Assembly: GCA_016235225.1 (NCBI GenBank)
Contig: JACRLS010000128.1
Location: 1 to 28,651 of the forward strand
DNA: 28,651 nt
Reading direction: 5' to 3'
DNA from: Nitrospirota bacterium
Lineage (GTDB): Bacteria > Nitrospirota > Nitrospiria > Nitrospirales > Nitrospiraceae
The position numbers were made by a program, and so were the translations under genes. Positions 168 to 15,195 of this stretch are shown here, piece after piece (positions within the stretch are counted from its first letter, which is position 1; each line of letters begins with the position of its first letter). The notes beneath the pieces are model-generated. The model was not told the origin of the DNA, ran no database searches, and saw nothing but the letters and a program-made list of their open reading frames with translations.

Positions 168-177
168 CTTACGAACC

Positions 178-304
178 CGTGGTCAGGGGTAGGAACAGAT
201 CGTGGTCCGTGGTCAGTGAAGGAAACCCCATACTCACTCACCACCATCCACTAGCCACTCTTGACCACGGTCTTCTATTATCTCGCCACCAACCACTGAC
301 CACT
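178..304. repeat. Inverted arrays of degenerate heptamers (GTGGTC-type / TGACCAC-type)
   Basis: cgtggtc at 178, 201, 208; ccac cores at 241, 248, 255, 265, 286, 293, 300 (mostly 7-nt period). Confidence 0.7.
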
Positions 305-306
305 CT

Positions 307-1152
307 CTATCCCCTGAACCCTCTCTTCAGCACCGCTCGATAGAAGGCCGGATTCAGCCACCGGTTTCGGGACGGCTTGAGCTTCGGCGACCCGCCGGCG
401 CGGCTCGCCATTACGGCTGGATGGCTGCCGGTAAAGTTCTTCATCATGTCGTATTCCTGAAATTCATACAAGTCCTTTGCGAGCATCCGGGCTTGTTCCT
501 GACCCGGGGCTTCCCCATGATGGCGGGCCACCTGGTACCGGAACTTGTCGAGGAGAACCCGCGGGTCCTTGACCCAGCCGTAATGATAGATCGTGCCGCC
601 ACAGGGACGGACTCGGTCTTTGTGCACGCTCTGCAGGTAGCCCTGGTCAGCCTTGCGCCAGAAGCCCACAGCATCACCACAAGACTCCACCTGGCCGTCA
701 TTTCGGATGATCCGGACGGCGCGGTGATAGAACCAGGGATTACAGGACCAATAGTCGCCGTAAAAATGCAGATACCGAAACGTGAACCCGAGCACCGATG
801 GATTACCCAGCTCCTGCTCCATGGCCTCACGCACGCGCGCATGATCGGCTTCATGAAGTACCTCATCGGCTTGCAGATAGAGCGCCCAATTCCCTGTACA
901 CTGTGCGAGCGCGATGTTCGTCTGCAACGAGAAGAGCAGCCCGTCCTTCTTCATCGCATCGTCCCAGACCGACTCGACGATCCGGACCTTGTCCGATCCA
1001 ATGGACCGGATCAGCGCGACCGTCCCGTCATCCGATTGCCCCACGTTCACCACAAATTCATCGACGAGTGGAAGCGCGGACGTAATCACCTCGACAATCG
1101 GGTAGTCGAACTTGACGGCGTTTCGACAGATGGAGAAACCGCTGACCTTCAT
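307..1152 (-). CDS. Glycosyltransferase family 2 (LPS biosynthesis)
   Basis: MKVSGFSICRNA...VVNVGQSDDGT...YLQADEVLH...HYGWV. Start placed at 1152 because the ORF-track extension to 1218 lies in a repeat array. Confidence 0.85.
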   Translation of the reverse strand: MKVSGFSICRNAVKFDYPIVEVITSALPLVDEFVVNVGQSDDGTVALIRSIGSDKVRIVESVWDDAMKKDGLLFSLQTNIALAQCTGNWALYLQADEVLHEADHARVREAMEQELGNPSVLGFTFRYLHFYGDYWSCNPWFYHRAVRIIRNDGQVESCGDAVGFWRKADQGYLQSVHKDRVRPCGGTIYHYGWVKDPRVLLDKFRYQVARHHGEAPGQEQARMLAKDLYEFQEYDMMKNFTGSHPAVMASRAGGSPKLKPSRNRWLNPAFYRAVLKRGFRG

Positions 1153-1157
1153 CTCAA

Positions 1158-1250
1158 AATTTGGCGATCTGGCGATTTGATGATTTAGCGATTTTCGGAT
1201 CAAGACTCCCCTGTCCAACCTTCACAAGATTACCAAATCACGAGATCACC
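1158..1250. repeat. Inverted arrays of degenerate octamers (GATTTGGC / ACCAAATC)
   Basis: aatttggc gatctggc gatttgat gatttagc gattttcg (1158-1197), spacer, acaagatt accaaatc acgagatc (1224-1247). Confidence 0.8.
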
Positions 1251-2033
1251 CTTTTCTCGCACAAGTTCCCACAACTTCGCATACTTGATGAAGGTGTAAT
1301 AGGCATAGAGCCCCGACAGGATCAGTCCCGGCGTCCCATCCAGAAAGCCGCCCCGGCCCAGGTACATCTTGAAGAAGGTGAAGGTCGGATGGGTGAACAG
1401 TTGGTGAGGCCTAAACCTCCGGCCTTGCTTGGCCATGCGCTCCGCCATCAGCCCGCTGTAGCGATCCATTTTCTCAAGATAATGATTCACGTCGCGAAAT
1501 GGATACTGGAGGACATGCTCACGGAGATAGCCGGCCTGCCCATTCAATTCGAACCCCTCGTGAACCGCTTCCTCGCGATAGCGTAGGCGGCTCTTCCGAA
1601 ATAACTGAGGCTGTCTGTAGTCCGGATACCAGCCGCAATGCCGAATCTGTCGCCCGAGGAAGAAGTTTTGCCGAGGCACAAAATACGCGTCGGCCTTGGG
1701 CCCCTCTTCCAACACCCGACGGATTTCATCCCGAATCTCCGGCGTGGCCCGCTCGTCCGTATCCAGGCTGAACACCCACTCGTGAGTCGCATGCGCGACC
1801 GCCTCGTTCCGCAGGCGTCCGAATCCATGGAACTCGTGTTGAAAGACCTTGTCGGTATACTCCTGGCTGATCTTCGCCGTGGCATCCGTGCTGTGAGAAT
1901 CCACCACGATGAGCTCATCGACCCAGCGAAGACTGTCCAGGCAGGGCCGCATGTTCGGTTCATCATTGTAGGCAATGACATAGGCCGAGACCTTGGTCTG
2001 GTTCATCTGGTTCATCTGGTTTGTCTGGTTCAT
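1230..2033 (-). CDS. Glycosyltransferase family 2 (WaaE/KdtX-like beta-1,4-glucosyltransferase family)
   Basis: YVIAYNDE..IVVDSHSTDAT..LDTDER..WYPDY..VHE; N-terminal MNQ repeats come from the nonamer array (alternative starts 2015, 2006). Confidence 0.85.
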   Translation of the reverse strand: MNQTNQMNQMNQTKVSAYVIAYNDEPNMRPCLDSLRWVDELIVVDSHSTDATAKISQEYTDKVFQHEFHGFGRLRNEAVAHATHEWVFSLDTDERATPEIRDEIRRVLEEGPKADAYFVPRQNFFLGRQIRHCGWYPDYRQPQLFRKSRLRYREEAVHEGFELNGQAGYLREHVLQYPFRDVNHYLEKMDRYSGLMAERMAKQGRRFRPHQLFTHPTFTFFKMYLGRGGFLDGTPGLILSGLYAYYTFIKYAKLWELVREKGDLVIW

Positions 2034-2127
2034 CTCGTGTGTCTGGTTCGTTTAGTTATCTGGATCAACCAAAGAAACGAGAAAAACCAGATCAACGAGA
2101 CAAAGGAGATCAACCACACAAACCTGG
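1998..2127. repeat. Inverted arrays of degenerate nonamers (CTGGTTYRT / AYRAACCAG)
   Basis: ctggttcat x2, ctggtttgt, ctggttcat, ctcgtgtgt, ctggttcgt (1998-2051); atcaaccaa agaaacgag aaaaaccag atcaacgag acaaaggag atcaaccac acaaacctg (2064-2126). Confidence 0.9.
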
Positions 2128-2130
2128 CTG

Positions 2131-3150
2131 CTAGACATGCTGGACTGTCACCGATTCAGCCCTCGTCAGCACAGATTGGATTCTGTCTGCCACGCCGTCC
2201 GCCGTGATCCGGTCCAGGCAATCCCAATAGGGACAGGCTTCGTAAATGCATTTCTCACAGGTCGGCACGTCGGGGCGGAGCACAAAGCCACGGCCCAGCG
2301 GCGCCCACCGGATCGGCAGATTGTTTCGGCGGGGATCGAACAGGCTGACGGTGGCCACCCCGAGCGCCGCAGCCATGTGCGCAGGACCGGTCGCGCCCGA
2401 AACGACCACCTGGCTCTGGGCGACCACGGCCATCAACTGTCTGACGGACAGACGGCCCATGAAGTCTTCAATGCCCTTGGTCGCACCCGGAGACCGGCCG
2501 ATTTCTTCCCGAAACCGATCCCCCTCTGCCTGATTGCCCGTCAACCCGACGGCAAGTCCCTCGGAGACCAGGCGCTGCACCAAATCCCAGTAGTGTCGGC
2601 TGGCCCAGCGACGGGCCGCAAACCCGCCTGGATGCAGAATGACACGGGGTGAGGGGATGGTAGCCAGGGTCGAAGCCGCCCATGCCCGTTCCTCCGGCGT
2701 CACGACCAGCCGCGGAGGCGCGACCGGCCCCGGTTCAATTCCCAGCCCGCGCAGCAGGCCCAGATTATACTCGGCTTCGTGCTTCGTGAAATCAGACCGG
2801 TGCTCATACACTCGTCGATTCGCGAACAGACCATACCATCGATAGCCGGTGGCCACCCGCTGCGGAACGCGGGCCCACCATGAGGCCATGATCAGCCGGC
2901 GAAAGGGCTTCAGAAAGAGTGCGACATCGATCTTCCTGCGAAAGAGCGCAACCAATTCAGCAAAAGACTCTTCTCCCGAAACAGTGACCACGTCATCGAG
3001 ATCAGGATGATGCGCCAGAACCGGCGCCGCATAGGCACTGGAGAGAAACATGATCCGGCTCTGAGGCTGCTGACGGCGCAGGGCGGACGCTACCGGCAGC
3101 GAGAGGATCTCGTCGCCGATGCCGTCTGGTCTGACGATCAGCACGTTCAT
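2131..3150 (-). CDS. Glycosyltransferase family 9 (heptosyltransferase-like)
   Basis: LIVRPDGIGDEILSLP, VILHPGG, VVSGATGPAHMAAALGVATVSLF: GT9 motifs. Confidence 0.9.
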   Translation of the reverse strand: MNVLIVRPDGIGDEILSLPVASALRRQQPQSRIMFLSSAYAAPVLAHHPDLDDVVTVSGEESFAELVALFRRKIDVALFLKPFRRLIMASWWARVPQRVATGYRWYGLFANRRVYEHRSDFTKHEAEYNLGLLRGLGIEPGPVAPPRLVVTPEERAWAASTLATIPSPRVILHPGGFAARRWASRHYWDLVQRLVSEGLAVGLTGNQAEGDRFREEIGRSPGATKGIEDFMGRLSVRQLMAVVAQSQVVVSGATGPAHMAAALGVATVSLFDPRRNNLPIRWAPLGRGFVLRPDVPTCEKCIYEACPYWDCLDRITADGVADRIQSVLTRAESVTVQHV

Positions 3151-3260
3151 AGGTAGAGGTTCAGGCTAAAGGATATTGATTCATTGGGTCAACGGGTCAT
3201 TGATCCAATGTCTCAATGATTCAATGCCTCAATGCTGATCCCTCAGCCTCAACCTTGGCC
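3151..3260. repeat. Nested inverted arrays: outer hexamers (AGGYTN / CCTCAR) and inner octamers (TCATTGRK / TCAATGNN)
   Basis: aggtag aggttc aggcta | atattgat tcattggg tcaacggg tcattgat | ccaatgtc tcaatgat tcaatgcc tcaatgct | cctcag cctcaa ccttgg. Confidence 0.8.
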
Positions 3261-4300
3261 CTCCCCTGCAGCACCTGCTGCACCGCGCGGAAGACGTCGG
3301 AGGGCGCGATGGCCGTCAGACATTCGAGCTGGCTCACATTGGTACAGCGCCGACTGAAACAGGGGCTACACGGAATACCCGCGCGCAAGACTTGATGGGA
3401 GGCTCCGTATGGCCCGGTTCTCGCCGGGCTGGTCGGGCCAAAGATGGCCACGACCGGGGTCCCCACCGCAGCGGCCACATGCATGGGCCCCGAATCGTTC
3501 GTCACCAACACCGCCGCCTTCCGCAGCAGTGCGGGCAGGAGACCGATTCCCGTCTGCCCCACAAGACTGATCGGCTGCTGCGCCATCAAGCGACTCACTG
3601 CATCGGCAGCCTCGCGCTCGCTGGGCGCTCCAAACAGTACCACCGGCCCGATTCCCGCTTCATTCAACTGGTCGATAAGCTTGGCGAAGGACTGGATGGG
3701 CCAGCATTTGGTCGGCCAGCGGGCCGACACATTCATCGCAATCCAGGGGCGATCAGATGTGATACCGCGGCGCGTTAACAGCAGGTTGACTGCCTCATCA
3801 TCGGTCCGCGGAATACTCAATCGAAATCGCGGGGTGGAAGGCCTTGGGGCCCCCAGAGCCTCGGCCACCAGGAGATACCGATCGACCGCGTGCATGTCGG
3901 GAGAGGGGACCGCCACGCGATGGGAATAGAAGAGGGGACTTCCCTCCCGTGCATCGGCAAACCCCAGCCGCACCGGCGCGCCACTGAGCCGCGCCATCAC
4001 TCCGCTCCGGAACAACCCCTGCAGATCAACCGCCAGATCGACGGCTTCCGCGCGCAAGCGAGGGACCTTCCCGAACCAGCCGCGAAGCCCCGGGGCTACC
4101 GCGCAAATCTCATCGACCCCCTCAACCCGCTGAACAAATCCGGCCCATTCCTGCTTAACCAGCCACGTAATCCTGGCCTGCGGAAAGCGACTCCGCAAGG
4201 CATCCAGCGTCGGCAGGGCGTGCACGATATCGCCCAACGAACTGGGCTTGATGAACAAGAGATGATGAACGTCTGAGACTGGCAGCACGACGTGGGTCAC
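3221..4300 (-). CDS. waaC: LPS heptosyltransferase I (GT9)
   Basis: FIKPSSLGDIVHALP, VDLQGLFRSG, TNDSGPMHVAAAVGTP; GTG start. Confidence 0.8.
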   Translation of the reverse strand: MTHVVLPVSDVHHLLFIKPSSLGDIVHALPTLDALRSRFPQARITWLVKQEWAGFVQRVEGVDEICAVAPGLRGWFGKVPRLRAEAVDLAVDLQGLFRSGVMARLSGAPVRLGFADAREGSPLFYSHRVAVPSPDMHAVDRYLLVAEALGAPRPSTPRFRLSIPRTDDEAVNLLLTRRGITSDRPWIAMNVSARWPTKCWPIQSFAKLIDQLNEAGIGPVVLFGAPSEREAADAVSRLMAQQPISLVGQTGIGLLPALLRKAAVLVTNDSGPMHVAAAVGTPVVAIFGPTSPARTGPYGASHQVLRAGIPCSPCFSRRCTNVSQLECLTAIAPSDVFRAVQQVLQGRAKVEAEGSALRH

Positions 4301-4308
4301 TCTTAGTA

Positions 4309-4361
4309 GTGCTCACACTGAGGAGGGAGGCCGATCAGGCAGCCGCTGTCACAGTGAGCAC
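4309..4361. repeat. Intergenic inverted repeat (gtgctcac / gtgagcac)
   Basis: 8-bp perfect arms at 4309-4316 and 4354-4361, extendable to 11 of 13 matches. Confidence 0.5.
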
Positions 4362-4388
4362 AATGCTCGGCGAGATAGTCGTTCAACC

Positions 4389-6014
4389 CTACCGCTCATC
4401 GATCCGTCGACACCCCTCCCCGGCCGTGACCTGGTACCGAACGCCGCAAGCTTCGCATAGCGCCCGGCCCCGTGTCACCTTCAATTTGACGCCGCAGGCA
4501 CACATCCAGCCCACGCGACGGGCCGGATTCCCGACCACCAGCGCATAGTCCGGCACCGATTTCGTGACCACTGCGCCCGCCCCTACAAAGGCGGACTGAC
4601 CGATCGTCACGCCACAGACAATCGTGCAGTTGGCGCCGAGTGTGGCCCCTTCGCGCACTCGCGTCAACTTCAGTTCGGCTTTTCGCGGGATCGCGCTCCG
4701 CGGATTGATGACATTCGTAAAGACCATGGCGGGCCCGCAGAACACGGCATCCTCCAACGTGACCCCTTCATAAATAGACACGTTATTCTGGATCTTCACT
4801 CCGTTGCCGATCGACACACGGGGGCCGATCACCACGTTCTGCCCGACGATACAGTTTCGACCGATCCGACTCCCGGCCAGCACGTGTGAGAAATGCCATA
4901 GCTTCGTGCCGGATCCGATCTCAGATGGCTGATCGACGATCGCGGTCGGATGAACCCAGACCCCAGCATGCCCCTCCCCCTTTCCCTCTCCCCCGAGGGG
5001 AAAGGGGGGGGTGAGGGGGACTGTCTCGCCCTCCCGAGTCAGTGACACCGCGACGCCTCGCAGATCGAGCGACTGCTGACTCGCCTGCAGCACTTCCAAG
5101 ACTGCAAGGGCCTCACGACCGTCGGTCCGCGCGGTGGTCCGATGTTCGACACACTCGAGGAAATGGCGACACTCGGCGGCCAGCGGCTCCTCCGACTCCA
5201 GCGGCACGACTTCCGCATTGCCCCGATGGGCCACCGGAGCTCGATCAACCCACGACACTTCGTGGGGATAGAGCACCAATTTGTCCTTGGCCAGATCATC
5301 GAACACGGCCATCTTTCGATCCCCGATGACCACCAGTCGCTGTTCCTTCACAGGGTGCAGCCAGCTCACAAAGATATGGCCCCTGACGCCGTTCGAAAAG
5401 GCCAGATGCGTCATGGTGACGTCCGGCACCCCGGTTTGCAGATAGGTCCCCCCGTTCGCCTGCACTGCCACCGGCAGCTGTCCGACGAGATGAATGAGTG
5501 TGGAGATATCGTGTGGAGCGAAGCTCCACAGAATATTCTCTTCACGGCGAAATTTGCCGATGTTCAGCCGGTTCGAATAGGCATACTGCAGCTTGCCCAG
5601 CTCGCCTTTGGCGATCAGCGCATTCAGCGCCACAACGGCCGGATGGTAGCGCAGCACGTGGCCGACCATGAGAATGCGCTGCAGCCGCGACGCCAGATCC
5701 ACCACTTCCCGGCCTTCCGCGAGGGCCAGCGCCAGCGGCTTTTCGACAAAGACGTCCTTGCCGGCCAGCAGGGCCTGTTTGGCCATGGCGGCGTGCGTTT
5801 TTGCCGGCGTTGCCAGGACCACGGCGGCAATCGTTGGATCAGCGAGGACCCGCTCGTAGGAGGCGACCATCGGCACGTCGGGGAAATGCTTCGCCGCCCG
5901 CTTCAGAGCGTTCGGATCGTCGTCGCAGATCGCCTGCAACGCGCCCATCGTGCCAAAGTTTCGGACCAGGTTCGCGCCCCAGGCGCCCGCTCCGACACAG
6001 GCCACCCTGATCAT
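4389..6014 (-). CDS. Fused Gfo/Idh/MocA oxidoreductase (WbpB/WlbA-like) + hexapeptide N-acetyltransferase (WbpD/WlbB-like)
   Basis: N-terminal VGAGAWG, FVEKP, MVGHVL, APHD; C-terminal [36 protein letters not shown]. Confidence 0.85.
4971..5020. repeat. G/C-rich REP-like palindrome inside the coding linker
   Basis: cccctccccctttccc ... gggaaagggggggg tgagggg; translated as [16 protein letters not shown]. Confidence 0.7.
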
Positions 6015-7753
6015 GCCTGCCTCCAGTCAAAGGTCGTCTGCACCGAGACTGCCTCATGTCCGCCCCCTGCCGCGTCCTGCTCGATCCAGGACACCGCCTC
6101 CACAAGCGACTCGGCCGTATGGTGAGGCAGCAGCGATCGTTCCTGCAGATCGCGAACCGCCTGGGCACTCGTCGGGCCGGTCGTGACGAGGACCGCTTTG
6201 ACCCCGACCCGATGACCAAGCTCAATGTCCCGACTCTGATCGCCCACGATATAGGCCCTGGTCAGATCAATCCCCAAATCTCGCTTCGCCCGCTCGACCA
6301 TGAGGGTGCCGGGCTTGCGACAGAGACAGCCATCGTCGGGATGGTGCGGACAAAAGTAGATCGCATCCAGCCAGCCGCCTGCCTGAGCCAACATGTCCTT
6401 GAGCCGGCCATGCGTCGCCTCCAGCACCTCCGGCGTAAACATTCCTCGCCCGATGCCGGACTGATTGGTAATCAAGATCACGCGGGCACCCGTCCGATTG
6501 AGTCGCGCCACGGTGTCCGCCGCTCCGGGTAGAAGGGTCAATTCCAGCGGATTCGTCACATAGCCGGATTCATGGTTCAGCGTTCCGTCCCGATCCAGAA
6601 AGACCGTCACGCCCTTGAGCGGCAGGCGCCGGCCGGCAATCCAGGACGAGCGCGCATTGGACGCCGCATCCCTGGCCGAGTCCTTCACGGTCGGGGAAGC
6701 GGCATCGGGGGACCGGATCATCAGCTTGAGCGAGGCGGTGTAGACCATCTCGACCGTCACGCCCGACATGCAGCGGTGATCGATGGGACATTCGCGCAGG
6801 AGGCAGGGCGCACAGTCCACCGGGTATCGGATCAGCTCATGACCCGGTCCGGCCGGCGCTGTGCTCCGCCAATCCGTCGGCCCGAAGACCGCCACCGTCG
6901 GCACCCCGAAGGCGCTCGCGATGTGCATGGGCCCCGTATCGTTGGTCAGGAACAGGTTGCACCGGCGGGTCACGCCCATCAACTCCCGTATGGTCGTCTG
7001 CCCGGACCACACCAGCGATCTCGCCTTCATCCGAGCGGCAATCTCCTGTCCCAAGGCCTCTTCTCCTCGCGCCCCGACGATGATGACCCAGGCGCGGTCT
7101 CGCCCCACCTCGTGGATGAGACGATCCGCGGTGTCCGCAAAGCGTTCAGGCCACCAGCGCTTGGCGCCACCGTAGACCGAGCCGGGATTGAGCCCGAGCA
7201 CAAAATCCCGGCCATCGATGCCGGCCGCCGACAGTCGATCCGTCATCCGTCGGTCTTCGTGGTCTTTGAGATACAGGCGAGGCGGCGCCGGGTCGCCCTC
7301 CACGCCCAGACGATGGAGCATGTCATGGTAATACCGAATCTGATGAGCGGGCCGCGTCCGATCCGGAACCGGGACCGGATGGGAGAGCAAGACCGACCGG
7401 CCGTCAGTCGCGTACCCGAATCGCCGCCGGATGCCCGCCATCCAAGTAATCAACGCCCCCTCAAACGCATTCTGAAAGAGCACGGCCAGGTCAAAACGAT
7501 CCCGCCGCAGCCGGCGCGCGAGATGCCACTTGCCGGACACACCGGCATGCCGCCCACGGTGATCATAGACCACCGTCGCCTGGACGGCCGGATGGCCATC
7601 AAGCAGCTCGGCGATCGTCGGTCGGGCCAGCAGCGTCAGCGGCGTCTCGGGAAAGGCCCGATGGAGCGCCGACAAGGCGGGCTCACACATGATCGCATCG
7701 CCGATCCAGTTCGGCACCCGAACCAGGATCCGGCGGATCTGATCTATTTTCAC
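6011..7753 (-). CDS. waaF: Fused LPS heptosyltransferase II (WaaF) + D-glycero-D-manno-heptose 1,7-bisphosphate phosphatase (GmhB)
   Basis: [33 protein letters not shown]; then the HAD motif [14 protein letters not shown] and [14 protein letters not shown]. Confidence 0.9.
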
Positions 7754-7769
7754 GCAGGCCTCACAGGTC

Positions 7770-7798
7770 AGTATAGCGGAAGGGTTCAGGGCCGCGAA
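7770..7798 (-). promoter_or_regulatory. Possible internal sigma70 promoter upstream of waaF
   Basis: TTCGCG-N17-TATACT on the minus strand; the -35 is weak. Confidence 0.3.
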
Positions 7799-8940
7799 GC
7801 AGGATCGTCTCTTTGCGCACCAGTCCGGGGGACCATCAGCAGCCGGTCAAGCTCCGCCTCGCCATCCAACACCTCAACCCCCAGCCGGACAACCCGGCAC
7901 AGCCGCTCCAACTCGGGTCCCAGGGCGAGTCGCGCCAGCTTGGCCGCATCTTTTTCCGTCGTCAGCACATAGTCGGCGTGGGCGCGACGAGCCACATCCA
8001 TGAGGCGTTCGGCATCTCGAAGCGAATAGCGATGGTGATCCGGCCAGGCGACTGCATCTACGACCGTGACGTGCAAGCGGTCGACATCACGACGAAACGC
8101 GCGGGGATTCGCAATGCCGCATCCGGTCACCACTCGCGCGCCCCGAATCCCGTCGATCGCGGTGGTGGTTCCGCCCTGGAGATCCGTCAGGGCCTCGTGG
8201 AAGAATCGCAACTGAATGGTCGGCCTTGCGGGCACCCGCGCTCGTGCCAGACGAGACAACAAGGCCGCGCTTCCGTGAGGCGTCTCGGCCCTGGTCACCA
8301 CGATGGCCGAGGCCCGGGATGCCGCCGTGAGCGGCTCGCGTAGCCGTCCCGCAGGGAGCAGTTGATCCAGGCTCGCCGGCGCGCTGGCGTCCAGCAGCAG
8401 CAGATTCACGTCCCGATCGAGGCTGAGATGCTGGAATCCATCATCCAGCACGAGTACGTCGAGGGGGATCTGGTTCAACACCCACCCGCCCAATCTCGCG
8501 CGGTCGGCTCCCACCGCGACCACCGCCTGAGGACATCGCCGGGCAATCAGGTACGGCTCATCCCCCCCCTCATCCGGGCCGAGGAGCGTGCGCCGCCCAT
8601 CTGATACCAGGGCCATGTCTTGCGAGCCTGATCGCCGATAGCCCCGACTCAGGATCCCGACGCGATAGCCCTGCTCGATCAATCGCGACGCCACGAAGAT
8701 GGTCACGGGCGTCTTGCCGGTTCCCCCGACCGTCACGTTGCCGATACTGATGACACGACAGGGCAGCGCATGACGAGCGAAGAGCCCGGCTCGGTACCCA
8801 CCGGCGCGAAGGCGCACGGCCGCGCCATAGACCCAGGACAGCGGAGTCAAGCAGGTCCGAAGGGGCCATGACAGCATCGGCTCACCGGCGGAACAGGAGC
8901 CGGAACAGACCTGACCGCCGGTCGTCCGGTGGGCGGTCAT
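7786..8940 (-). CDS. lpxK: Tetraacyldisaccharide 4'-kinase
   Basis: ISIGNVTVGGTGKTP, LSRGY, LDDGFQH, LPAGRLREP, PDHH, TTEKD; ATGA overlap with the waaA stop. Confidence 0.95.
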   Translation of the reverse strand: MTAHRTTGGQVCSGSCSAGEPMLSWPLRTCLTPLSWVYGAAVRLRAGGYRAGLFARHALPCRVISIGNVTVGGTGKTPVTIFVASRLIEQGYRVGILSRGYRRSGSQDMALVSDGRRTLLGPDEGGDEPYLIARRCPQAVVAVGADRARLGGWVLNQIPLDVLVLDDGFQHLSLDRDVNLLLLDASAPASLDQLLPAGRLREPLTAASRASAIVVTRAETPHGSAALLSRLARARVPARPTIQLRFFHEALTDLQGGTTTAIDGIRGARVVTGCGIANPRAFRRDVDRLHVTVVDAVAWPDHHRYSLRDAERLMDVARRAHADYVLTTEKDAAKLARLALGPELERLCRVVRLGVEVLDGEAELDRLLMVPRTGAQRDDPASRP

Positions 8941-10358
8941 GCTCGGACCAATTGAGAGGCCTCTGTCCGATCGGAGTTCAGAATGCCTTGCACGAACTCC
9001 ACGCTCCGTCGCAGTGCACCTCGATTTTCCGTCACCACCAGAGAGGCGGCACGGCCCATGGCTTCACGCCGCTTTCCATCGCGTATCAGTTGTTCCGCTT
9101 CTCCGCCGAATTCCCGACCATCACGAATCCGAGCGCCGGCCCCCGCCTCCAAGGGAAGCGAGGCCAGTTCCTCGCAATGGTCCGTGTAGGGGCCGAACAG
9201 CACCGGCTTTCCCCATAAGGCTGGCTCCAGAAGATTGTGTCCACCGACCGGCACGAGGGTCCCCCCCACGAAGGCCACCGTGGCGTGCCGATAGACCGAC
9301 GCGAGTTCCCCTCGCGTATCCAGAATCACGACCCGCCCGGCTCCCGCCGGTGGGAGTGACCTCCCGTCCGTCATCTCGCTCCGTCGCTGGACGGCCAGTC
9401 CGCGCCCCCGCACCACGACATCGAGATCGGAGGCCCGCTCGATATGCCGGGGTGCTATGACCAGCACCGTCTCTGGATGGTGTGCGAGGATGCTCTCGTA
9501 CCCATCCAGAATCTGCTCTTCTTCACCTGGATGAGTGCTCCCTGCCACCAGCACCGGAGTCTGATCGCGGATGTCGAGGCCCGCACGCGTGATATCTTTT
9601 ATAAGGGATGTGCCGCTCCCGACAGTCTGGTCAAACTTGAGGTTACCGACCCGAACAACGCGGGCCGGATCGGCGCCCAACGCGATGATCCGCATGGCGT
9701 CACGTTCGGATTGCATCAGGAACAGGCGGATATGGGAGAGCACCTGGGCCATCAAGGGTCGAATCCGACGATAGCCCTCGAACGACCGTGAGGACAACCG
9801 CCCGTTGATCATGACACAGGGCACGCCGCGGCGATGCAAGGTCCGCAATAGATTCGGCCAGAGTTCGGTTTCCACAAAGACAAACAGCCGCGGATTCAGG
9901 AGGCGGACGACACGCCGGACGACCCAGGGAAAATCGAGCGGGGCATAGCAATGGTCCGCCACGCCCTTCAGTCGCTGTTCGACCGCTTCCCGGCCTGTTT
10001 CGGTCACTGTAGAGACGACCAACCGGTCCTGCGGATACCGCCGTCGCAGCTCTTGCACCAAGGGCACGACGGCAACGGCCTCGCCCAGCGACACCGCATG
10101 GACCCAGATGACCGGTTGATTTGGTTGATCTGGTTTGTCTCGTTTTTCTGGTTTGTGTGGTTCCTTGGTCCGGAGCCAGCCAGATAAACGAGAAAAACCA
10201 CATGAACCAGAAAAACCAGACAAACTGGACGGACCAGATGAACCAGATAACCCGAGTCTTTCGAGCAACCCTCGCCGGCAACGCTTCTTCACCAGCAAGA
10301 TGCCCAGAATAATCGGTGAGGCGATAAGCAGCAGGCCGTTATAGAGGAAGTACCACAT
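8937..10358 (-). CDS. waaA: 3-deoxy-D-manno-octulosonic acid (Kdo) transferase carrying an in-frame repeat insertion
   Basis: WVHAVSLGE, ETELWPN, VGNLKFD, AGSTHPGEE, APRHIER, GGHNLLEPA. Confidence 0.95.
   Translation of the reverse strand: MWYFLYNGLLLIASPIILGILLVKKRCRRGLLERLGLSGSSGPSSLSGFSGSCGFSRLSGWLRTKEPHKPEKRDKPDQPNQPVIWVHAVSLGEAVAVVPLVQELRRRYPQDRLVVSTVTETGREAVEQRLKGVADHCYAPLDFPWVVRRVVRLLNPRLFVFVETELWPNLLRTLHRRGVPCVMINGRLSSRSFEGYRRIRPLMAQVLSHIRLFLMQSERDAMRIIALGADPARVVRVGNLKFDQTVGSGTSLIKDITRAGLDIRDQTPVLVAGSTHPGEEEQILDGYESILAHHPETVLVIAPRHIERASDLDVVVRGRGLAVQRRSEMTDGRSLPPAGAGRVVILDTRGELASVYRHATVAFVGGTLVPVGGHNLLEPALWGKPVLFGPYTDHCEELASLPLEAGAGARIRDGREFGGEAEQLIRDGKRREAMGRAASLVVTENRGALRRSVEFVQGILNSDRTEASQLVRA
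10112..10256. repeat. Inverted nonamer arrays inside waaA (same family as 1998-2127)
   Basis: ccggttgat ttggttgat ctggtttgt ctcgttttt ctggtttgt gtggttcct; then ataaacgag aaaaaccac atgaaccag aaaaaccag acaaactgg acggaccag atgaaccag ataacccga. Confidence 0.9.
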
Positions 10359-10370
10359 GGAGAAAAGTAT

Positions 10371-10456
10371 GATTGAGTGATTCGGGGATTTGGTGATTAT
10401 CCGAACGGAGGAACTTCCGGTTCTGTCACTTCACCACATCATCAGATCGCCAAATC
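10371..10456. repeat. Inverted octamer arrays (same family as 1158-1250)
   Basis: gattgagt gattcggg gatttggt gattat; spacer; accacatc atcagatc gccaaatc. Confidence 0.75.
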
Positions 10457-11115
10457 TTACTTTCTCGCCTGTTCCTCCGCCAGCACCGTTAATCGGTTGA
10501 GGGCGTCCTGAAGTTCCGCGCACTTCGCGTCAAGTTCCTCATCCGTCGCTTCTGAGGCGACCGATATCGGCTGCCCGACCAGGAAGGCGCCCCGGCTGAA
10601 CGGCATCGGCAACTGGAAACGGTCCCAACTGGCGAGGGTTTTTTTTTTGCGTAGGCCACGGCCACCGGAACGATCGGCAGCCCTGTCGCCTTGGCCAGAT
10701 AGACCGCGCCCCGCTGCGCCGTATGGCGAGGCCCTCGTGGCCCGTCTGGCGTGACGATCAGGTCTCGCGCGCTCCGGCCTAATTCAACCAATCGGCGCAA
10801 GGCCACGGCGCCGCCACGGCTGGTCGACCCCCGGACCGCCTCAAGTCCGAACCGCGCGGCAATCCGGGCGATTAACTCGCCATCCCGATGGCGGCTGATC
10901 AGTACAGACGCGCCGGGGCCGTGATAGAACAGCGGCATCATCAACTGCTGGTCATGCCAGAAGGCGACAATCACGGAACGCTGCCCCCTGACCGTCTCAA
11001 AGGCTTCCCCACCCTTTTGAACATCCAGGCGAAGCGTGCGGCCGATCATGCGAATCAGCCAGGCCCCGAAACCGGGAATCAACATCAGCTTCAGCCGATT
11101 GATCATGTCGCGCAT
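10457..11115 (-). CDS. DUF374 / lysophospholipid acyltransferase family protein; needs a -1 shift at an A10 tract for full length
   Basis: Frame 0 has FWH, LISRHRDGELI, VRGSTSRGG, TPDGPRGP. The -1 frame after A10 reads TLASWDRFQLPMPFSRG...EEQARK and stops at 10457. Confidence 0.85.
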
Positions 11116-11124
11116 GGCATCTTT

Positions 11125-11161
11125 CTCAGCACTCAGCACTCAGCACTCAGCACTCAGCACT
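11125..11161. repeat. Perfect heptamer tandem repeat (CTCAGCA)5
   Basis: Five exact copies at 11125-11159; one degenerate inverted unit ttagtgctta at 11171-11180. Confidence 0.95.
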
Positions 11162-11194
11162 GCCAACTACTTAGTGCTTATTCTCACCGCTTCT

Positions 11195-12928
11195 TTAAGG
11201 CGCCACGTCCAGGAATTGAATGGAATGGAGGCGCTTGTACATCCCGCCCCGTTTCAGCAGTTCCTCATGCGAGCCGACCTCCGCAATGCGCCCGTGATCC
11301 ATCACGACGATCCGGTCGGCCTTTTGAATCGTGGAGAGCCGGTGCGCAATGATCAGCGTCGTACGATTCTTCATGACGTTTGAAATCGCCATCTGCACGA
11401 TCCGTTCGGATTCGGAATCCAGCGCGGAAGTGGCTTCGTCTAGAATCAGAATGGGCGGATCGCGAAGAATGGCCCTGGCAATCGCCAACCGCTGACGTTC
11501 GCCGCCGGAGAGCTTCACCCCATCCTCCCCGATCATGGTGTCATAGCCGTTGGGGAGGCGTTGGATGAAGTCATGGGCATAGGCGGCCTTCGCAGCCGTT
11601 TCGACCTCGGCCTCGGTCGCCTCCGGTCTCCCATACGCAATGTTCTTCTTGACCGAGTCATCAAACAGCATCGTATCCTGGGAGACAATCCCGATCTGCG
11701 CCCGGAGCGACCGGAGGGTGCAGCCCTGTATATCCTGGCCGTCGATCAGGACGGCGCCGCCAGTCGGATCGTAGAATCGCGGCACCAAACTCACCAGCGT
11801 GGACTTTCCGCTGCCGCTGCTTCCCACGAGGGCCACGTTCTCTCCTGCGCCCACCGTCAGGGTGACGTTGGCCAGGGCCTCACGATCATGCCCTTCATAC
11901 CGAAAGGTCACGTGCCGGAACTCCAGGCTCTGCCGAATGACAGGAAGATCCTCCCGACCGTGATCCCGGTCCTGCTCATTAGGAAGATCGAGCACCGCAA
12001 AGACCCGCTCGGCCGCGGCCAGCGCCTGTTGGACCGTATGATTGGTGGTCCCGAGACGGCGCAGAGGCGAGTAGGCGAGGAACATGGCGGTCATGAAGGA
12101 GAAGAAGGCTCCGGCGGTCATGGCTCCCGTTATCACGAGATACCCCCCATACCAGATGATCGCCGCGACGCCGAGGACACTGGTCAGTTCCAACTGAGAG
12201 GAGGACACCGAGGACACCTGGATCGCCTTCATACTGAGGCCGAAAAATGAGCGATTGATGCGGCGGAACCGGTCGGCCTCCATCTCTTCACGCCCGAAGG
12301 CCTTCACCACCCTGATGCCGGACAGGGATTCCTGTACGGCCGAGGACATGTCCCCCACCTTCTCCTGTCCCCTGGTCGCCAGCGTCCGCAACCGCTTGCC
12401 GCGCCGAACAATCGTATAGATCGACAAGGGCGCCACGATGATCGACACCGTCGCGAGCTTCCAATTCTGATAGAAGATGACGCCCATCAGGGCCAGGCAT
12501 GTCAGCCCCTGCTGAAACAGCTCGCGCATCACACCGGCGCCGGCGTTGGCCATGAGACTCACATCGTTAAACACGTGGGACATGAGGCGGCCGGACGTGT
12601 TGCTGTCGTGATAGCCCACCGGCATCCGCATGAGTTGCAGAAATAGTTCTTCCCGAATCTCTGTGACGACCTGATTCCCGACGTAGTTGATGAGGTACGC
12701 CTGCCCATAGTTGAAGACGGCCTTCAGCACGGAGACCCCAAGAATCGTCAGGGGGAGCACGAGGAGGAGCGTCTGATCCTTGGCGATAAAAATCCCGTCG
12801 AGCACGGGACGGACCAGCCAGGCGTAGGCGCCGGTCATGGCCGCGACCAATGCGGAACAGCCCAAGGCCGCCCCCAGCCGGACGCGGTACCGGAGCAGAT
12901 AGCGGAGCAATCGCAGAAACAGGGTCAT
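11195..12928 (-). CDS. msbA: Lipid A/core flippase ABC transporter MsbA
   Basis: Transmembrane domain plus GSSGSGKST, LSGGERQR, ILDEATSALD, IAHRLSTI; ATG at 12928 forms an ATGA overlap with the lpxB stop. Confidence 0.9.
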   Translation of the reverse strand: MTLFLRLLRYLLRYRVRLGAALGCSALVAAMTGAYAWLVRPVLDGIFIAKDQTLLLVLPLTILGVSVLKAVFNYGQAYLINYVGNQVVTEIREELFLQLMRMPVGYHDSNTSGRLMSHVFNDVSLMANAGAGVMRELFQQGLTCLALMGVIFYQNWKLATVSIIVAPLSIYTIVRRGKRLRTLATRGQEKVGDMSSAVQESLSGIRVVKAFGREEMEADRFRRINRSFFGLSMKAIQVSSVSSSQLELTSVLGVAAIIWYGGYLVITGAMTAGAFFSFMTAMFLAYSPLRRLGTTNHTVQQALAAAERVFAVLDLPNEQDRDHGREDLPVIRQSLEFRHVTFRYEGHDREALANVTLTVGAGENVALVGSSGSGKSTLVSLVPRFYDPTGGAVLIDGQDIQGCTLRSLRAQIGIVSQDTMLFDDSVKKNIAYGRPEATEAEVETAAKAAYAHDFIQRLPNGYDTMIGEDGVKLSGGERQRLAIARAILRDPPILILDEATSALDSESERIVQMAISNVMKNRTTLIIAHRLSTIQKADRIVVMDHGRIAEVGSHEELLKRGGMYKRLHSIQFLDVAP

Positions 12929-14055
12929 GCGCGGCACTCCGAGAGCACGACTTGGGCTGCCCGCCTTGAGGCACCCGGCGTGCCGAGCGCGTCACGGACC
13001 GCACGCAGTTCGCCTCGCATCCGCTCCCAAGCGGGGCGATCCCGGAGCAGTCGCAGGGCTTCGCTCACCATCCGGTCAACCGTGGCATTCGATTGAATCA
13101 ATTCTGGAATAATCTCACGACCGGCCACAAGATTGGCTAGCCCCGCCCATTGTACCCGAACCAGCCGCTTTGCGATCTGCCACCCCACCCAAGACGTCCG
13201 ATAGGTGATGATCATGGGGGTGCCGACGATCGCGGCCTGCAGAGTGGCGGTCCCGGAGGCCACCAACAGCAAGTCCGAGGCCGCCATCACCTCATTCGCC
13301 TGATCCCGAGCTATGGCGACTGGAAGGCCCGACGCCCGGATGGGACCATTCAACCATGATTCAGAGACGGAACGTGCTTGCGCCAGGACCAGACCCAGAT
13401 TCGGAAATTCCTGCTTGAGCGCCCCGGCCGATTCCAGCAGGAGCGGCAGGAGGCGATGGACCTCCTGCTCACGGCTCCCCGGCAGCAATCCAATGATCGG
13501 CCCGGCCGACGCCAGACCGAGGCGTCGCCGTACCTCCGCCTGGTCATAGCTCGGCGCAACGGCGTCCAACAGCGGGCGCCCGACAAACGTGCATCGGACA
13601 CCGGCGCGCCGGTACAGCTCCGGCTCGAACGGCAGGATCACCGCCACGTGGTCCACGTACTGTTGCATCTGCCGGATGCGGCCGGGACGCCAGGCCCAGA
13701 ACTGCGGCGCGATGTAGTACACGACCCGATGTCCCGCCTGCTTTGCGAAGCGCGCCACCCGGAGGTTGGTCCCCGGATGATCGACGAGCACGACGGCGTC
13801 CCACTTCGTGGCGCGCAGATGCTCGGCCAACCGGCGGAGATTGCCGATCGCCACCATCACCGCTTTGGGACCTGGAACCCCGATCACATCCACCCGTTCG
13901 ATCCCGGGCAGCAACGTGACCGGGACGGCGGCCATGTGAGGACCGCCCACCCCGTGCAGCTCGACGTTCGGATCGGCCTCTCGAAGCGCCTGGGCCAGGT
14001 GGGCCCCATGGAGATCTCCGGACGCCTCTCCTGTGATGATGAAAATCCGGGGCAT
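12925..14055 (-). CDS. lpxB: Lipid-A-disaccharide synthase
   Basis: ITGEASGDLHG, YYIAPQFWAWR, ILPFE, LLPGSR, ASGTATL. Confidence 0.95.
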   Translation of the reverse strand: MPRIFIITGEASGDLHGAHLAQALREADPNVELHGVGGPHMAAVPVTLLPGIERVDVIGVPGPKAVMVAIGNLRRLAEHLRATKWDAVVLVDHPGTNLRVARFAKQAGHRVVYYIAPQFWAWRPGRIRQMQQYVDHVAVILPFEPELYRRAGVRCTFVGRPLLDAVAPSYDQAEVRRRLGLASAGPIIGLLPGSREQEVHRLLPLLLESAGALKQEFPNLGLVLAQARSVSESWLNGPIRASGLPVAIARDQANEVMAASDLLLVASGTATLQAAIVGTPMIITYRTSWVGWQIAKRLVRVQWAGLANLVAGREIIPELIQSNATVDRMVSEALRLLRDRPAWERMRGELRAVRDALGTPGASRRAAQVVLSECRA

Positions 14056-14067
14056 CGGGTGCTGCTA

Positions 14068-14228
14068 AGGTTAAGGCTGAGGTTCAGGTCAAGAAGATGA
14101 GCTCAACACAGGGCGCAGCGCGGAGACTTCTTCGCTCTTCATCACCTCGTCATGCTCCCTGTCGGTCTTCATCTCAACTCAACCTTAGCCTTAACCTTAG
14201 CCTCTCCTTTCGCCTCAGCCTCAACCTG
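14068..14228. repeat. Inverted hexamer arrays (AGGYTN / CTYARC) flanking an ~80-nt insert
   Basis: aggtta aggctg aggttc aggtca (14068-14091); ctcaac cttagc cttaac cttagc ctctcc tttcgc ctcagc ctcaac (14178-14225). Confidence 0.85.
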
Positions 14229-15195
14229 TCTCCGACGAGTTCCGCCGCAGGAATTCGTCGATCGCGTCCAGGATCCGGTGGGCCAAGTCCAAGGCCGCCG
14301 TGCCATCCTCCCCCGACACCACAGGCGGGGCCCCGGTTGACACCGAGCGAAGAAAGGCCTCGAGCTCGAGTTTCAAGGGCTCGCCTTCTCCGCCGGTCAG
14401 AGGTTCCGTCTCAATCCCCGATGCTCCTTCCGTCGGTTGGTGCGCCCGTGAGATTGTGCCTTGACGGGTATGATAATCCATCATGATCGCCGCGTCTCGC
14501 TGGAAGAGGCGAATCGTCCGAGAAGGCGCCTCCGAGACACGGCTGGCCGTGAGATTCGCCACACATCCGCCGGCAAACTGGATCCGGGCTTGGGCGATGT
14601 CATACAAGGGGGTCAAGACCGGAGCGCCGACCGCGCGGATCTCCTCGACCGGTCCCGGCTGGAAGGAGAGGAGGATGTCCAGATCGTGGATCATGAGGTC
14701 GAGGACGACGTTGACATCCGTCCCGCGGACCCCAAACCGGCTCAAGCGATGACATTCGACGTACGCCGGCCGGGACACGAGAGACCGGAGCGCGGCAATG
14801 GCGGGATTGAACCGCTCCACATGACCGACCTGGAGCACGCGCGCCGCGTGACGCGCCAGGCGCACCAAGTCGTGCGCTTCGTGGGGCTCGACCGTGATGG
14901 GTTTCTCCACGAGGACATGGACACCGGCTGCCAGACAAGCTTTCGTGATGACATAGTGATCAGACGTCGGCACGGCCACGCTGACGGCGTCGACCTCTTT
15001 GAGGAGCGCCTGGACATCGGCGAACACCGCCGCCCCATACCGCTCGGCGACGGACTGTGCCTGCTCTGGACGCGTATCCACCACGCCGACCAGCGTGGCT
15101 TGCGGAAGAGCCGCATAGAGGCGCGCGTGGTGCTGGCCGAGATGGCCCACGCCGATGACGCCCACACGGAGCGGACGCGCCGCCTCAGCCCTCAC
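14221..15195 (-). CDS. Gfo/Idh/MocA oxidoreductase, GnnA-like (UDP-GlcNAc 3-dehydrogenase)
   Basis: VIGVGHLG, LVEKP, QVGHVERFNPA, DLMIHDLD; located between lpxI and lpxB. Confidence 0.75.
   Translation of the reverse strand: MRAEAARPLRVGVIGVGHLGQHHARLYAALPQATLVGVVDTRPEQAQSVAERYGAAVFADVQALLKEVDAVSVAVPTSDHYVITKACLAAGVHVLVEKPITVEPHEAHDLVRLARHAARVLQVGHVERFNPAIAALRSLVSRPAYVECHRLSRFGVRGTDVNVVLDLMIHDLDILLSFQPGPVEEIRAVGAPVLTPLYDIAQARIQFAGGCVANLTASRVSEAPSRTIRLFQRDAAIMMDYHTRQGTISRAHQPTEGASGIETEPLTGGEGEPLKLELEAFLRSVSTGAPPVVSGEDGTAALDLAHRILDAIDEFLRRNSSETG

Follow-up and report, generated by a model that had tools for sequence, protein, structure and literature searches.

The window, by which we mean the whole stretch of 28,651 nucleotides that was analysed, belongs to a Nitrospira MAG of 2.3 Mb, 70% complete. 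An LPS gene run, with GT2 and GT9 genes, waaA, msbA and lpxB, occupies its first half. At the junctions of these genes sit short arrays of tandem units facing their own reverse complement, across spacers of 20-95 nt that contain no ORF (Table 1). TRF and an inverted-repeat scan located the 8-, 9-, 6- and 7-mer arrays where a sequence-only reading had placed them. The array at 11125, which that reading had called mostly one-armed, is a perfect repeat with essentially a single arm. None was found in the other half (14.3-28.6 kb), again as had been said, and only four gaps there exceed 40 nt, two of them divergent.

Six of the nine sites listed by that reading fold far better than shuffled sequence, with z between -3.5 and -7, against -0.1 to -2.5 for four control spacers. 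Of the others, two (at 168 and 10359) are weak or decayed, and the site at 4309, previously taken for a weaker member of the family, is an ordinary hairpin.

Table 1. Sites of the LPS region; z is the folding score of the minus (sense) strand RNA against 200 dinucleotide shuffles, computed per site.
Position	Strand	Feature	Context	z	Details
168..306		heptamer-type foldback, GGTCAGT-like units	between unknown gene (307-1152) and GT2 gene (3-167)	-2.4	inverted pairs I17 and I25 (inverted-repeat scan)
1153..1260		8-mer foldback, GATTTGGC/GGTGATCT units	between GT2 (1230-2006) and unknown gene	-4.5	period 8 by TRF
1990..2130		9-mer foldback, TCTGGTTYR units	adjoining GT2 gene	-5.0	44-nt arms, 80% complementary
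3145..3265		nested: outer 6-mer GAGGTT/GAGGCT arms around inner 8-mer (CATTGANN) hairpin	between two GT9 genes	-5.0	
4296..4392		plain short hairpin, non-member of the class	GFO/hexapeptide-GT9 spacer	0.0	periodicity 0.42, i.e. none; no tandem units
10112..10256	-	9-mer foldback, translated in frame inside waaA	linker, membrane anchor to GT domain	-7.05 (10110-10258)	
10359..10488		decayed 8-mer element	DUF374/waaA junction	-0.5	one long imperfect hairpin; period-8 autocorrelation 0.61
11116..11200		mostly one-armed heptamer array, (CTCAGCA)x5.3	msbA/DUF374 junction	-3.5	TRF 100% matches
14056..14230		6-mer foldback, GGTTGA/GGCTAA units, ~90-nt spacer	between GFO-type gene and lpxB	-4.8 (14060-14209)	24-nt arms, 92% complementary

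The upstream stop codon (1230-1232) lies in the 5′ arm of the element at 1153..1260, and another lies in the first arm of the element at 14056..14230. At 1990..2130 the GT2 gene takes its in-frame start codons (ATGAACCAG) from the 3′ arm. The waaA element had been counted among those of gene junctions; it is placed inside the coding sequence, in a protein whose Pfam domain begins at residue 78.

Census and polarity across the genome

The view that such elements belong to glycan loci does not survive a census of the MAG. About 186 periodic hairpin elements, amounting to 0.86% of the sequence, are spread over it, housekeeping operons included: they are found at flagellar (fliQ, flgH), era, panD and ABC operon junctions. 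Glycosyltransferase matches in the MAG, 5 for GT2 and 7 for GT1, are too few to measure an enrichment at glycan loci. A period of 7 is the most frequent (103 elements), followed by 6 (46), 8 (19) and 9 (18). Arrays having a reverse-complement partner number 298, versus 6-12 in controls. Dozens of unit families coexist within this one genome, and a given family turns up at many loci and in more than one genus; that of the array at 11116..11200 has 41 matches across the MAG.

The LPS run is nevertheless dense, five of its six gaps being periodic against a genome rate of 19% (binomial p ~1e-3, a post hoc value obtained on the largest contig). The statement that almost every spacer is filled is partly circular: the elements create their own spacers, because the flanking genes abut or overlap where a close relative is without the element.

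Location and orientation follow a common rule. Periodic gaps account for 19% of co-directional and 18% of convergent gaps, as against 8% of divergent ones, and 70 of 100 elements have the upstream stop codon within the hairpin or no more than 20 nt from the foot. Whichever the strand, the G-rich arm is the 5′ one in 168 of 186 elements (p 1e-31), compared with 64 of 112 in a set of non-periodic hairpins. Stop triplets are enriched 1.5-fold in the 5′ arm (p 1e-26), and 103 of 372 arms block all three frames, versus 39 in shuffles.

Turnover at orthologous sites

Filled and empty states of the same site, which the sequence-only reading had envisaged, were found among waaA orthologues, in a relative about 90% identical (L001), in other Nitrospira and in a strain about 95% identical (X3). 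Tight or overlapping junctions in L001 make empty sites at two element positions: the element at 3145..3265 is absent, stop and start overlapping there as TGATG, and the gap that corresponds to 14056..14230 has only 18 nt. Other Nitrospira display at this latter junction 8-mer families, 7-mer families or nothing, while L001 has at the 11116..11200 junction a CATTGA 8-mer hairpin, which belongs to an unrelated family. Even the closer strain has different sequence at four element sites. There, 142 unalignable letters take the place of the element at 168..306, 121 different letters that of the element at 1153..1260, and 143 different letters that of the array at 11116..11200; the element at 3145..3265 is skipped. 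Its waaA element is 66 nt (22 codons) shorter, in frame, and in waaA orthologues the element is of variable length, or missing. At the DUF374/waaA junction 12 relatives had usable flanks; its length is 111-193 nt in every one of them, and its periodicity reached 0.6 in ten, with units of 7, 8 or 9 nt. A single junction hosts different unit families in different genomes, and the elements turn over much faster than the flanking genes change.

No target-site duplication was seen at two filled/empty sites. The motif AAGGTTGAGG was found in filled and empty alleles alike, making it native coding sequence within an arm, and the C-terminal codons of DUF374 match the heptamer unit. Arms that contain native coding sequence also fit local seeding. 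In genome annotation the elements matter as makers of operon spacers, as sources of stop and start codons, by the Shine-Dalgarno sites that they would remove, and by the low-complexity linkers that proteins such as WaaA acquire. They also provide strain-level markers, and probably cause contigs of Nitrospira MAGs to break.

Like arms around a four-helix-bundle gene

Arms of the same make also enclose a gene. All six genes of the MAG that belong to PF05635/TIGR02436, the Avd or '23S rRNA intervening sequence protein' family, occupy the loop that G-rich and complementary C-rich tandem-repeat arms enclose, on contigs other than that of the window. The cross-gene inverted-repeat score of these cassettes was reached by only 17 of 1877 genes, among which all five PF05635 genes called by the gene caller. 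Where arms of one family bracket a gene outside PF05635, that gene has a housekeeping role. Outside the MAG, flanking inverted arms were found at 25 of 29 PF05635 loci from other Nitrospiraceae genomes (IR score of at least 30) and at 20 of 25 from other Nitrospirota (at least 29), hence around about 45 of 54 sampled genes across Nitrospirota. TIGR04256, which had been named as another candidate cargo, was not found in the MAG. Literature searches, of incomplete coverage, returned no paper linking PF05635 to flanking tandem repeats, and none on such repeats in Nitrospira.

Arms and proteins vary together. Mean arm similarity is 0.60 for protein pairs at least 60% identical, versus 0.22-0.28 for less similar pairs, a covariation that is also seen in four sets with unrelated flanks and that is in part simple co-inheritance, since several same-clade cassettes are orthologous loci. 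The window elements share architecture, polarity and unit families with the cassettes, without the PF05635 ORF. Cassettes match the 6-mer family (L112), the 7-mers (C14; L106, L115, L117) and the 8-mer (C202): arms similar to those at 168..306 flank the PF05635 gene of contig C14, and an 8-mer similar to that of 1153..1260 surrounds the PF05635 gene at C202:7529. A 9-mer match (L124) is doubtful, because the mirror control scored higher (41 vs 36).

The sequence-only reading had suggested cassettes that lost their cargo, with TIGR02436 as a candidate. The link to this family holds. As to the loss, blastx matches of the window spacers to the four-helix-bundle family were no better than those of a reversed-sequence control, and with no such remnant the loss is unsupported, gain of cargo or independent gene-less copies fitting equally well. 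PF05635 cargo was also sought at orthologous LPS junctions, where the 750-1050-nt gaps of relatives turned out to contain ordinary extra genes (HAD-like, methyltransferase-like and glycosyltransferase-like, as judged by eye) and no PF05635 gene. All four genomes having a GTGCTGA-type cassette carry 22-58 arrays, and several genomes without it carry 20-50, making for a weak association that ignores phylogeny. Finally, one complete genome (G024) has 50 GTGCTGA arrays with no cognate four-helix-bundle protein above 34% identity; the protein is therefore unnecessary for arrays to persist.

Interpretation, rivals and related systems

At a probability of roughly two in three, we would assign these sites to a class of small palindromic foldback elements, distributed genome- and phylum-wide, the gene-less counterparts of cassettes whose like arms bracket a PF05635/TIGR02436 four-helix-bundle gene. 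Such an element comprises a stop-rich, G-rich array of 6-9-nt units, then a spacer, then a complementary C-rich array, and lies directly at a gene's stop codon, between co-directional or convergent genes, thereby creating its own spacer. It comes and goes by insertion, replacement and deletion, presumably spreading as a whole unit as MITEs do, with the four-helix-bundle protein as a possible repeat-specific partner. The high density in the LPS operon would then reflect many permissive junctions, not LPS function. Each element is predicted to add to the polycistronic RNA a hairpin of about -35 to -65 kcal/mol; the next gene would have its Shine-Dalgarno site displaced, and the stem would have the upstream stop at one foot and the downstream start at the other. 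Expression would then depend on termination-reinitiation across the stem, which RNase III might perhaps cleave, as it does in rRNA intervening sequences.

As regards mobility, three GAGGTT-armed families are present in 2-4 copies, 84-97% identical over 125-167 nt with conserved loops, and nested elements occur. The window's own copies have diverged, its two 9-mer elements (1990..2130 and that of waaA) being 74% identical over 127 aligned nt. Of the features of a MITE, dispersion in multiple copies with a conserved interior is there, while neither target-site duplication nor a transposase-encoding autonomous partner was seen. A search of the 70%-complete MAG brought up neither a transposase nor a match to RAYT (Y1 transposase, PF01797); the elements showed no target-site duplication and no defined ends, and among gene families PF05635 alone is enclosed by arms, without being known as a transposase. 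A link to retroelements via Avd was considered and discarded: the MAG has a single RT, the maturase of a group II intron, at a distance of 4.5 kb from one of the cassettes.

A rival that we hold to be unlikely, yet the best of those considered, does without mobility altogether. Slippage would amplify the surroundings of a stop codon and template switching would copy them inverted, each element being a by-product born in place. Native gene ends within arms and stop triplets enriched in units are what it would produce, as are slippage-type changes in length (the 66-nt in-frame difference in waaA, the variable linkers), and neither transposase nor target duplication was found. It accounts poorly for identical unit families at many loci and across genera, for families that are full-length copies with conserved non-repeat loops, for arms whose family tracks the four-helix-bundle subfamily in unrelated contexts, and for a junction that changes to an unrelated family between genomes about 90% identical.

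Somewhat less probable again is a selected RNA-hairpin system that would tune the stability of the long LPS transcript, its translation or, as the sequence-only reading proposed, its processing. Strong hairpins are predicted at nearly all the non-overlapping junctions of one operon, stop and start are at the feet of the stem, the local density is high, and the DUF374/waaA junction stays within 111-193 nt in the 12 relatives and is periodic in ten of them. Yet sense and antisense strands fold equally well (53:46, n=100, p 0.51), and, the sense strand not being preferred, a G:U-type signature of selection on RNA is lacking; an initial bias of 12/13 towards sense came from a set chosen by sense z-score, and vanished in this unbiased one. 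Elements are missing or replaced in strains 90-95% identical, the same class stands at fliQ, flgH, era, panD and other junctions, and the density has the post hoc standing already mentioned. A T-run right after the stem (at least 6 T in 10 nt), as for an intrinsic terminator, follows only 4 of 100 elements, and Rfam gave no match at gathering threshold anywhere in the window. No observation points to tuned RNA processing, both strands folding equally well and elements being replaced between strains about 95% identical. A search for data sets that contain the locus yielded DNA metagenomes only.

Improbable, too, is that the elements are paired sites on DNA to which a nucleoid protein or a global regulator binds, although the architecture is symmetric on DNA, displays no RNA strand bias and offers repeated short units suited to multimeric binding. 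Aklujkar et al. (2009; PMC2700814) read similar pairs in Geobacter as binding sites of global regulators, and proposed the IHF/HU type. A depletion in divergent (promoter) gaps, a location after stop codons, dozens of unit families per genome and a very fast turnover all go against such a role. As for G-quadruplex-forming repeats of the Xanthomonas/Nostoc type, which have the same orientation rule (G-rich strands converge) and the same location between aligned ORFs (Rehm et al., 2015; PMC4692102), the motif count largely refutes them, four canonical tracts of at least 3 G occurring in only 8 of 186 elements and in none of the window's eight.

Coming back to foldback elements and their cassettes, a tentative extension is that PF05635/TIGR02436 proteins may be sequence-specific partners of their own flanking units, cassette and gene-less copies together making an unrecognised mobile or self-maintaining element. 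The tandem heptamers of cyanobacteria (STRR) have been noted since 1990, and we know of no mechanism proposed to date for them or for the paired 6-9-nt repeats of Geobacter and Xanthomonas. Here, about 50 of 60 genes sampled in one phylum tie the paired-repeat architecture to a single family of small proteins, which gives a concrete factor for testing. The fold of this family is solved, and its relative Avd handles nucleic acid. Were the partnership true, it would explain the inverted 6-9-nt pairs of Nitrospira; extended to other groups, the explanation would cover the STRR as well as the pairs known from Geobacter and Xanthomonas.

Several known systems resemble the elements in part, the paired repeats of Xanthomonas and Geobacter and the cyanobacterial STRR being the nearest of those published. 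STRR of heterocystous cyanobacteria are abundant intergenic tandem heptamers, of several families and unexplained function; in the Nitrospira MAG, by contrast, inverted pairing and periods of 6, 8 and 9 are the rule, and host and periods (6-9) set the elements apart from that class. REP, BIME and REPIN are likewise dispersed intergenic palindromes located after genes, but REP arms lack a tandem structure and require the RAYT Y1 transposase, no cognate of which was found in this MAG. Rickettsia palindromic elements (RPEs), palindromes dispersed in the same manner, can in addition enter proteins in frame, a situation paralleled by waaA, and form one conserved sequence family only. The Drosophila foldback (FB) transposons end in long inverted repeats of varying length, themselves composed of short tandem subrepeats, and some but not all have a coding segment in between; being eukaryotic, of kilobase scale and unrelated in sequence, they are alike in architecture only. 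In the 23S rRNA intervening sequences (IVS) of Leptospira and Coxiella, a PF05635 gene also lies within inverted repeats that form a long stem. These IVS are located in 23S rRNA helices and excised by RNase III, whereas the Nitrospira cassettes and gene-less forms lie between or inside protein genes, with arms of tandem short repeats. The S23p/PF05635 family of IVS is related to the Avd of DGRs (PMC10053308).

Contrary to the statement that no known analogue mixes periods, Geobacter metallireducens does so, with paired 7-, 8- and 8/9-mer classes in which 3-5 tandem units face an opposite-strand copy at variable distance, between and sometimes within genes, and which are absent from a sister species (Aklujkar et al., 2009; PMC2700814). 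Set against this published description, our elements are similar in having at least 3 tandem units of 7-9 nt, an opposite-strand copy, a variable distance and several classes; their unit sequences are different, and PMC2700814 gives no four-helix-bundle link, polarity rule or turnover data. GGGAATC heptamers of Xanthomonas make 70-75 inverted pairs per genome with convergent G-rich strands, enriched between aligned ORFs at most 50 bp from the stop, under-represented at divergent ORFs and differing in copy number between species; Nostoc data of the same authors likewise show cyanobacterial tandem heptamers (Rehm et al., 2015; PMC4692102). Convergent G-rich arrays, enrichment between aligned ORFs and depletion at divergent ones are found here as well. 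Xanthomonas has one G4-prone heptamer family, whereas Nitrospira has dozens, with periods from 6 to 9 and canonical G4 in 8/186.

The locus and its hairpins

The MAG that holds the window (one entire 28.7-kb contig, C89) comprises 2.34 Mb in 317 contigs and is 70% complete. The best relatives of its WaaA come from Nitrospira and Nitrospiraceae MAGs, the closest being that of Nitrospira sp. RSF151 (locus L001; 88% amino acid identity). From 1 to 20.7 kb every gene lies on the minus strand. The order by coordinate is GT2, an unknown gene, GT2, GT9, GT9, a GFO/hexapeptide fusion, GT9-HAD, lpxK, waaA, DUF374, an msbA-like ABC exporter, lpxB, a GFO-type dehydrogenase, lpxI, lpxA, fabZ, skp, skp and bamA. 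The latter (18585-20682) is spread over two ORFs that overlap: 19876-20682 encodes POTRA domains, 18585-19937 POTRA and Omp85. A frameshift, an error of assembly or a true split could account for this. A ten-T run at 10636-10649 (A10 on the sense strand), within the DUF374 gene, had been pointed out as a possible frameshift or slippage site; the ORF that spans it (10489-11139) nonetheless matches DUF374 at residues 71-138.

TRF recovers 8-, 9-, 6- and 7-mer arrays where the sequence-only reading had placed them, and an inverted-repeat scan finds arms of at most 51 nt with 78-92% complementarity. Each site was folded as sense RNA against 200 dinucleotide shuffles; control spacers fold at z -0.1 to -2.5.

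Repeat elements of the window and their RNA fold relative to shuffles
Position	z	Character
168-306	-2.4	weak
1153-1260	-4.5	clearly non-random
1990-2130	-5.0	clearly non-random
3145-3265	-5.0	clearly non-random, nested
10110-10258	-7.05	clearly non-random
10359-10488	-0.5	decayed; period-8 signal 0.61
11116-11200		perfect heptamer array, one arm
14060-14209	-4.8	clearly non-random

The family of hairpins proposed for nearly every LPS gene junction is thus real, with five clearly non-random sites, but it had been drawn somewhat too widely. The '4309' hairpin is no member (z 0, no periodicity), and the 9-mer element at 10112-10256, rather than occupying a junction, lies within waaA and is translated in frame, between the N-terminal anchor, whose last residues are ...ERLG, and the conserved motif VIWVHAVSLGE; the Pfam domain starts at residue 78. 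In metagenome run X1, from groundwater, summed contig depth is ~5800 in the 500-nt bin 11001-11500, which holds the array 11125-11161, and many loose ends occur at window 11122-11164, which suggests that very many loci, and probably many organisms of that community, have the (CTCAGCA)n array in common.

A genome-wide class of elements

In the whole MAG TRF finds 1439 arrays, most commonly of period 7. A reverse-complement partner lies within 250 nt of 298 of them, as against 6-12 in reversed or complemented controls. The partnered arrays, merged with the output of an independent scan for hairpins, make up 186 periodic hairpin elements (103 of period 7, 46 of period 6, 19 of period 8 and 18 of period 9), with a median length of 99 nt and a median MFE of -47 kcal/mol, totalling 0.86% of the MAG. 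Periodicity of at least 0.6 is reached by 1 of 887 shuffles; among gaps of 40-260 nt the share that reaches it is 19% for co-directional, 18% for convergent and 8% for divergent ones. Five of six gaps in the LPS run are periodic (nominal binomial p ~1e-3, post hoc and on the largest contig), and the glycosyltransferase genes of the MAG are too few for proper enrichment statistics. Specificity for LPS genes finds no support, since the 186 elements are spread MAG-wide: arms of the same families also bracket genes for a response regulator, an ABC ATPase and a radical-SAM enzyme, as well as era, fliQ, flgH and panD. At C117:3379-5160 a long inverted repeat (score 199) encloses a 594-aa ORF, probably an insertion sequence with no relation to the short-repeat elements.

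The elements share a polarity. In 168 of 186 (p 1e-31) the G-rich arm comes first, at the 5' side, and the C-rich arm follows at the 3' side, as in 145 versus 8 of the strongly skewed ones; the elements being palindromic, this is true on both strands. Hairpins that are not periodic do not follow this rule (64 of 112). Stop triplets number 1079 in the 5' arms versus 723 in their own shuffles (1.5x, p 1e-26), and 103 of 372 5' arms block all three frames, compared with 31 3' arms and 39 shuffled ones. The stop codon of the upstream gene lies within the hairpin or at most 20 nt from its foot in 70 of 100 co-directional cases. At the six two-armed junction elements of the window that stop is in the 5' arm or at most 3 nt from it, and the next start is 0-11 nt past the 3' foot or within the 3' arm. 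As judged by eye, most genes downstream of window elements lack a Shine-Dalgarno motif, which the empty alleles of L001 possess.

The role proposed for the hairpins in tuning the processing of a transcript is unsupported, sense and antisense RNA being equally stable (53:46, n = 100, p 0.51); a 12:1 sense-strand bias in a first test was a selection artefact. The elements are not terminators, a T-run following only 4 of 100. Rfam gives no match in the whole window, and only eight of the 186 have canonical G-quadruplex potential.

Similar pairs are known elsewhere. Tandem 8-mers, 8/9-mers and heptamers of Geobacter metallireducens form paired sites that face each other from opposite strands at variable distance, and have been read as binding sites for a regulator (PMC2700814). 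In Xanthomonas, GGGAATC arrays make 70-75 convergent pairs, which lie close to stop codons between aligned ORFs, are under-represented where ORFs diverge and were interpreted as G4 repeats; Nostoc arrays are mostly unpaired (PMC4692102). The Nitrospira elements agree with these systems in architecture, polarity and location. The number of unit families, the 6-9-nt periods and the lack of G4 potential set them apart. Our literature search found no paper on them in Nitrospira.

Turnover and origin

Filled and empty states at orthologous junctions, anticipated by the sequence-only reading, are indeed seen. L001, collinear with window 14675-2676 at 87-92% nucleotide identity, is empty at two element sites: the 165-nt 6-mer element corresponds to an 18-nt gap, and the nested element at 3151-3260 to an overlapping TGATG stop/start. 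At the site of the CTCAGCA array of the window, L001 carries a CATTGA 8-mer hairpin. As the two genes abut or overlap in a close relative without the element, the elements make spacers rather than fill pre-existing ones. The operon is conserved across 18 Nitrospiraceae loci, where the overlapping junctions lpxB/msbA, waaA/lpxK and GT9-HAD/GFO are almost never filled and the non-overlapping ones are filled or empty by lineage, with differing unit families. At the GFO/lpxB junction the window holds a 6-mer, four genomes have a GGGGTAAN 8-mer, three a GCGTGAN heptamer, and five have nothing there. That of DUF374/waaA measures 111-193 nt in all 12 relatives with usable flanks, 10 of which reach periodicity 0.6 with 7-, 8- or 9-mer units.

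Turnover is also visible between strains. In contigs of metagenome run X3, whose genes are ~95% identical to those of the window, 152-335, 1146-1267 and 11069-11202 are taken up by sequence of similar length that does not align, and 3170-3274 is skipped. The waaA element of these contigs is shorter by 66 nt (22 codons), with the frame kept; nine Nitrospiraceae orthologues have this insert at differing lengths, and it is absent from seven, as from a more distant homologue (L019). Within glycosyltransferase genes, the short stretches 1533-1618, 2478-2580, 2637-2744 and 3370-3698 do not align to the X3 strain, and look like hypervariable patches.

Are the elements mobile, or born where they stand? 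Three families with GAGGTT arms have 2-4 dispersed copies each, 84-97% identical, non-repeat loops included; elements are nested at 3145-3265 and in contigs C75 and C162; and unit families, though not positions, are common to several genera. All this speaks for mobility. It speaks for local seeding that the left arm at 3151-3260 contains AAGGTTGAGG, native coding sequence present in the empty L001 allele too, that conserved C-terminal codons of DUF374 match the heptamer unit in seven lineages, that no target duplication is visible between window and L001, and that no transposase or RAYT gene was found in the 70%-complete MAG. We favour mobility of whole units, at a probability of about 0.7, possibly helped by microhomology with the target. 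A repeat with a GCGCGTTGCGCGAGCAC-like core adjoins several GAGGTT-armed copies (C187:~1850, C93:~8130, C271:~4800 and C37:~1700 of this MAG) and may represent a further dispersed family, or else a piece of some larger composite element.

A candidate protein partner

All six PF05635 (four-helix-bundle) genes of the MAG lie between G-rich and complementary C-rich tandem-repeat arms, heptamers at five and 8-mers at one. The cross-gene inverted-repeat score of these loci is reached by 17 of 1877 genes (3 in the mirror control), among them all five PF05635 genes found by the gene caller. The family is present in 36 of the 41 Nitrospiraceae genomes sampled, and in 32 of 81 from Nitrospirota. Taking the best match per genome, and arm scores of at least 30 (family) or 29 (phylum), inverted arms surround 25 of 29 family and 20 of 25 phylum loci, the latter ranging from 38% to 64% GC; nearly all arms are periodic, G-rich arm first. 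Mean arm similarity is 0.60 for protein pairs at least 60% identical, 14 of 31 reaching 0.6, as against 1 of 407 pairs less than 50% identical. Several of the similar pairs are orthologous loci, so that an arm family accompanying the gene is kept from one genus to another; four sets have only gene and arms in common, in unrelated contexts.

Unit families of the window recur in such cassettes: the GGTTGAGG 6-mer (L112), the heptamers GTGCTGA (L106, L115, L117) and GGTCAGT (C14), and the GGTGATNT 8-mer (C202). A 9-mer cassette (L124) is less clear, its mirror control having scored higher, and none with the CATTGA 8-mer was seen among the PF05635 loci examined. The suggestion that the hairpins are cassettes with lost cargo is supported as regards the link to PF05635, though not as regards the loss: element spacers contain no four-helix-bundle gene remnant, and cargo may have been either lost or gained. 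Abundant arrays need no cognate cassette, since one genome (G024) has 50 arrays and no cognate protein. We found no paper tying PF05635 to flanking tandem repeats; a known but poorly understood kind of repeat now has a concrete, testable candidate protein partner.

PF05635 resembles Avd, the DGR accessory protein (PMC10053308). The sole reverse transcriptase of the MAG, however, is a group II intron maturase (RVT_1 and GIIM; L153:889-2352, contig C56), which lies 4.5 kb from one PF05635 cassette. Finally, a complete Nitrospirota genome (G052) has two equal-scoring PF05635 matches, each with one in-frame TAA (C1:1520320-1520634 and 1736797-1737111), which may be copies within repeated units such as rRNA operons (classical IVS).
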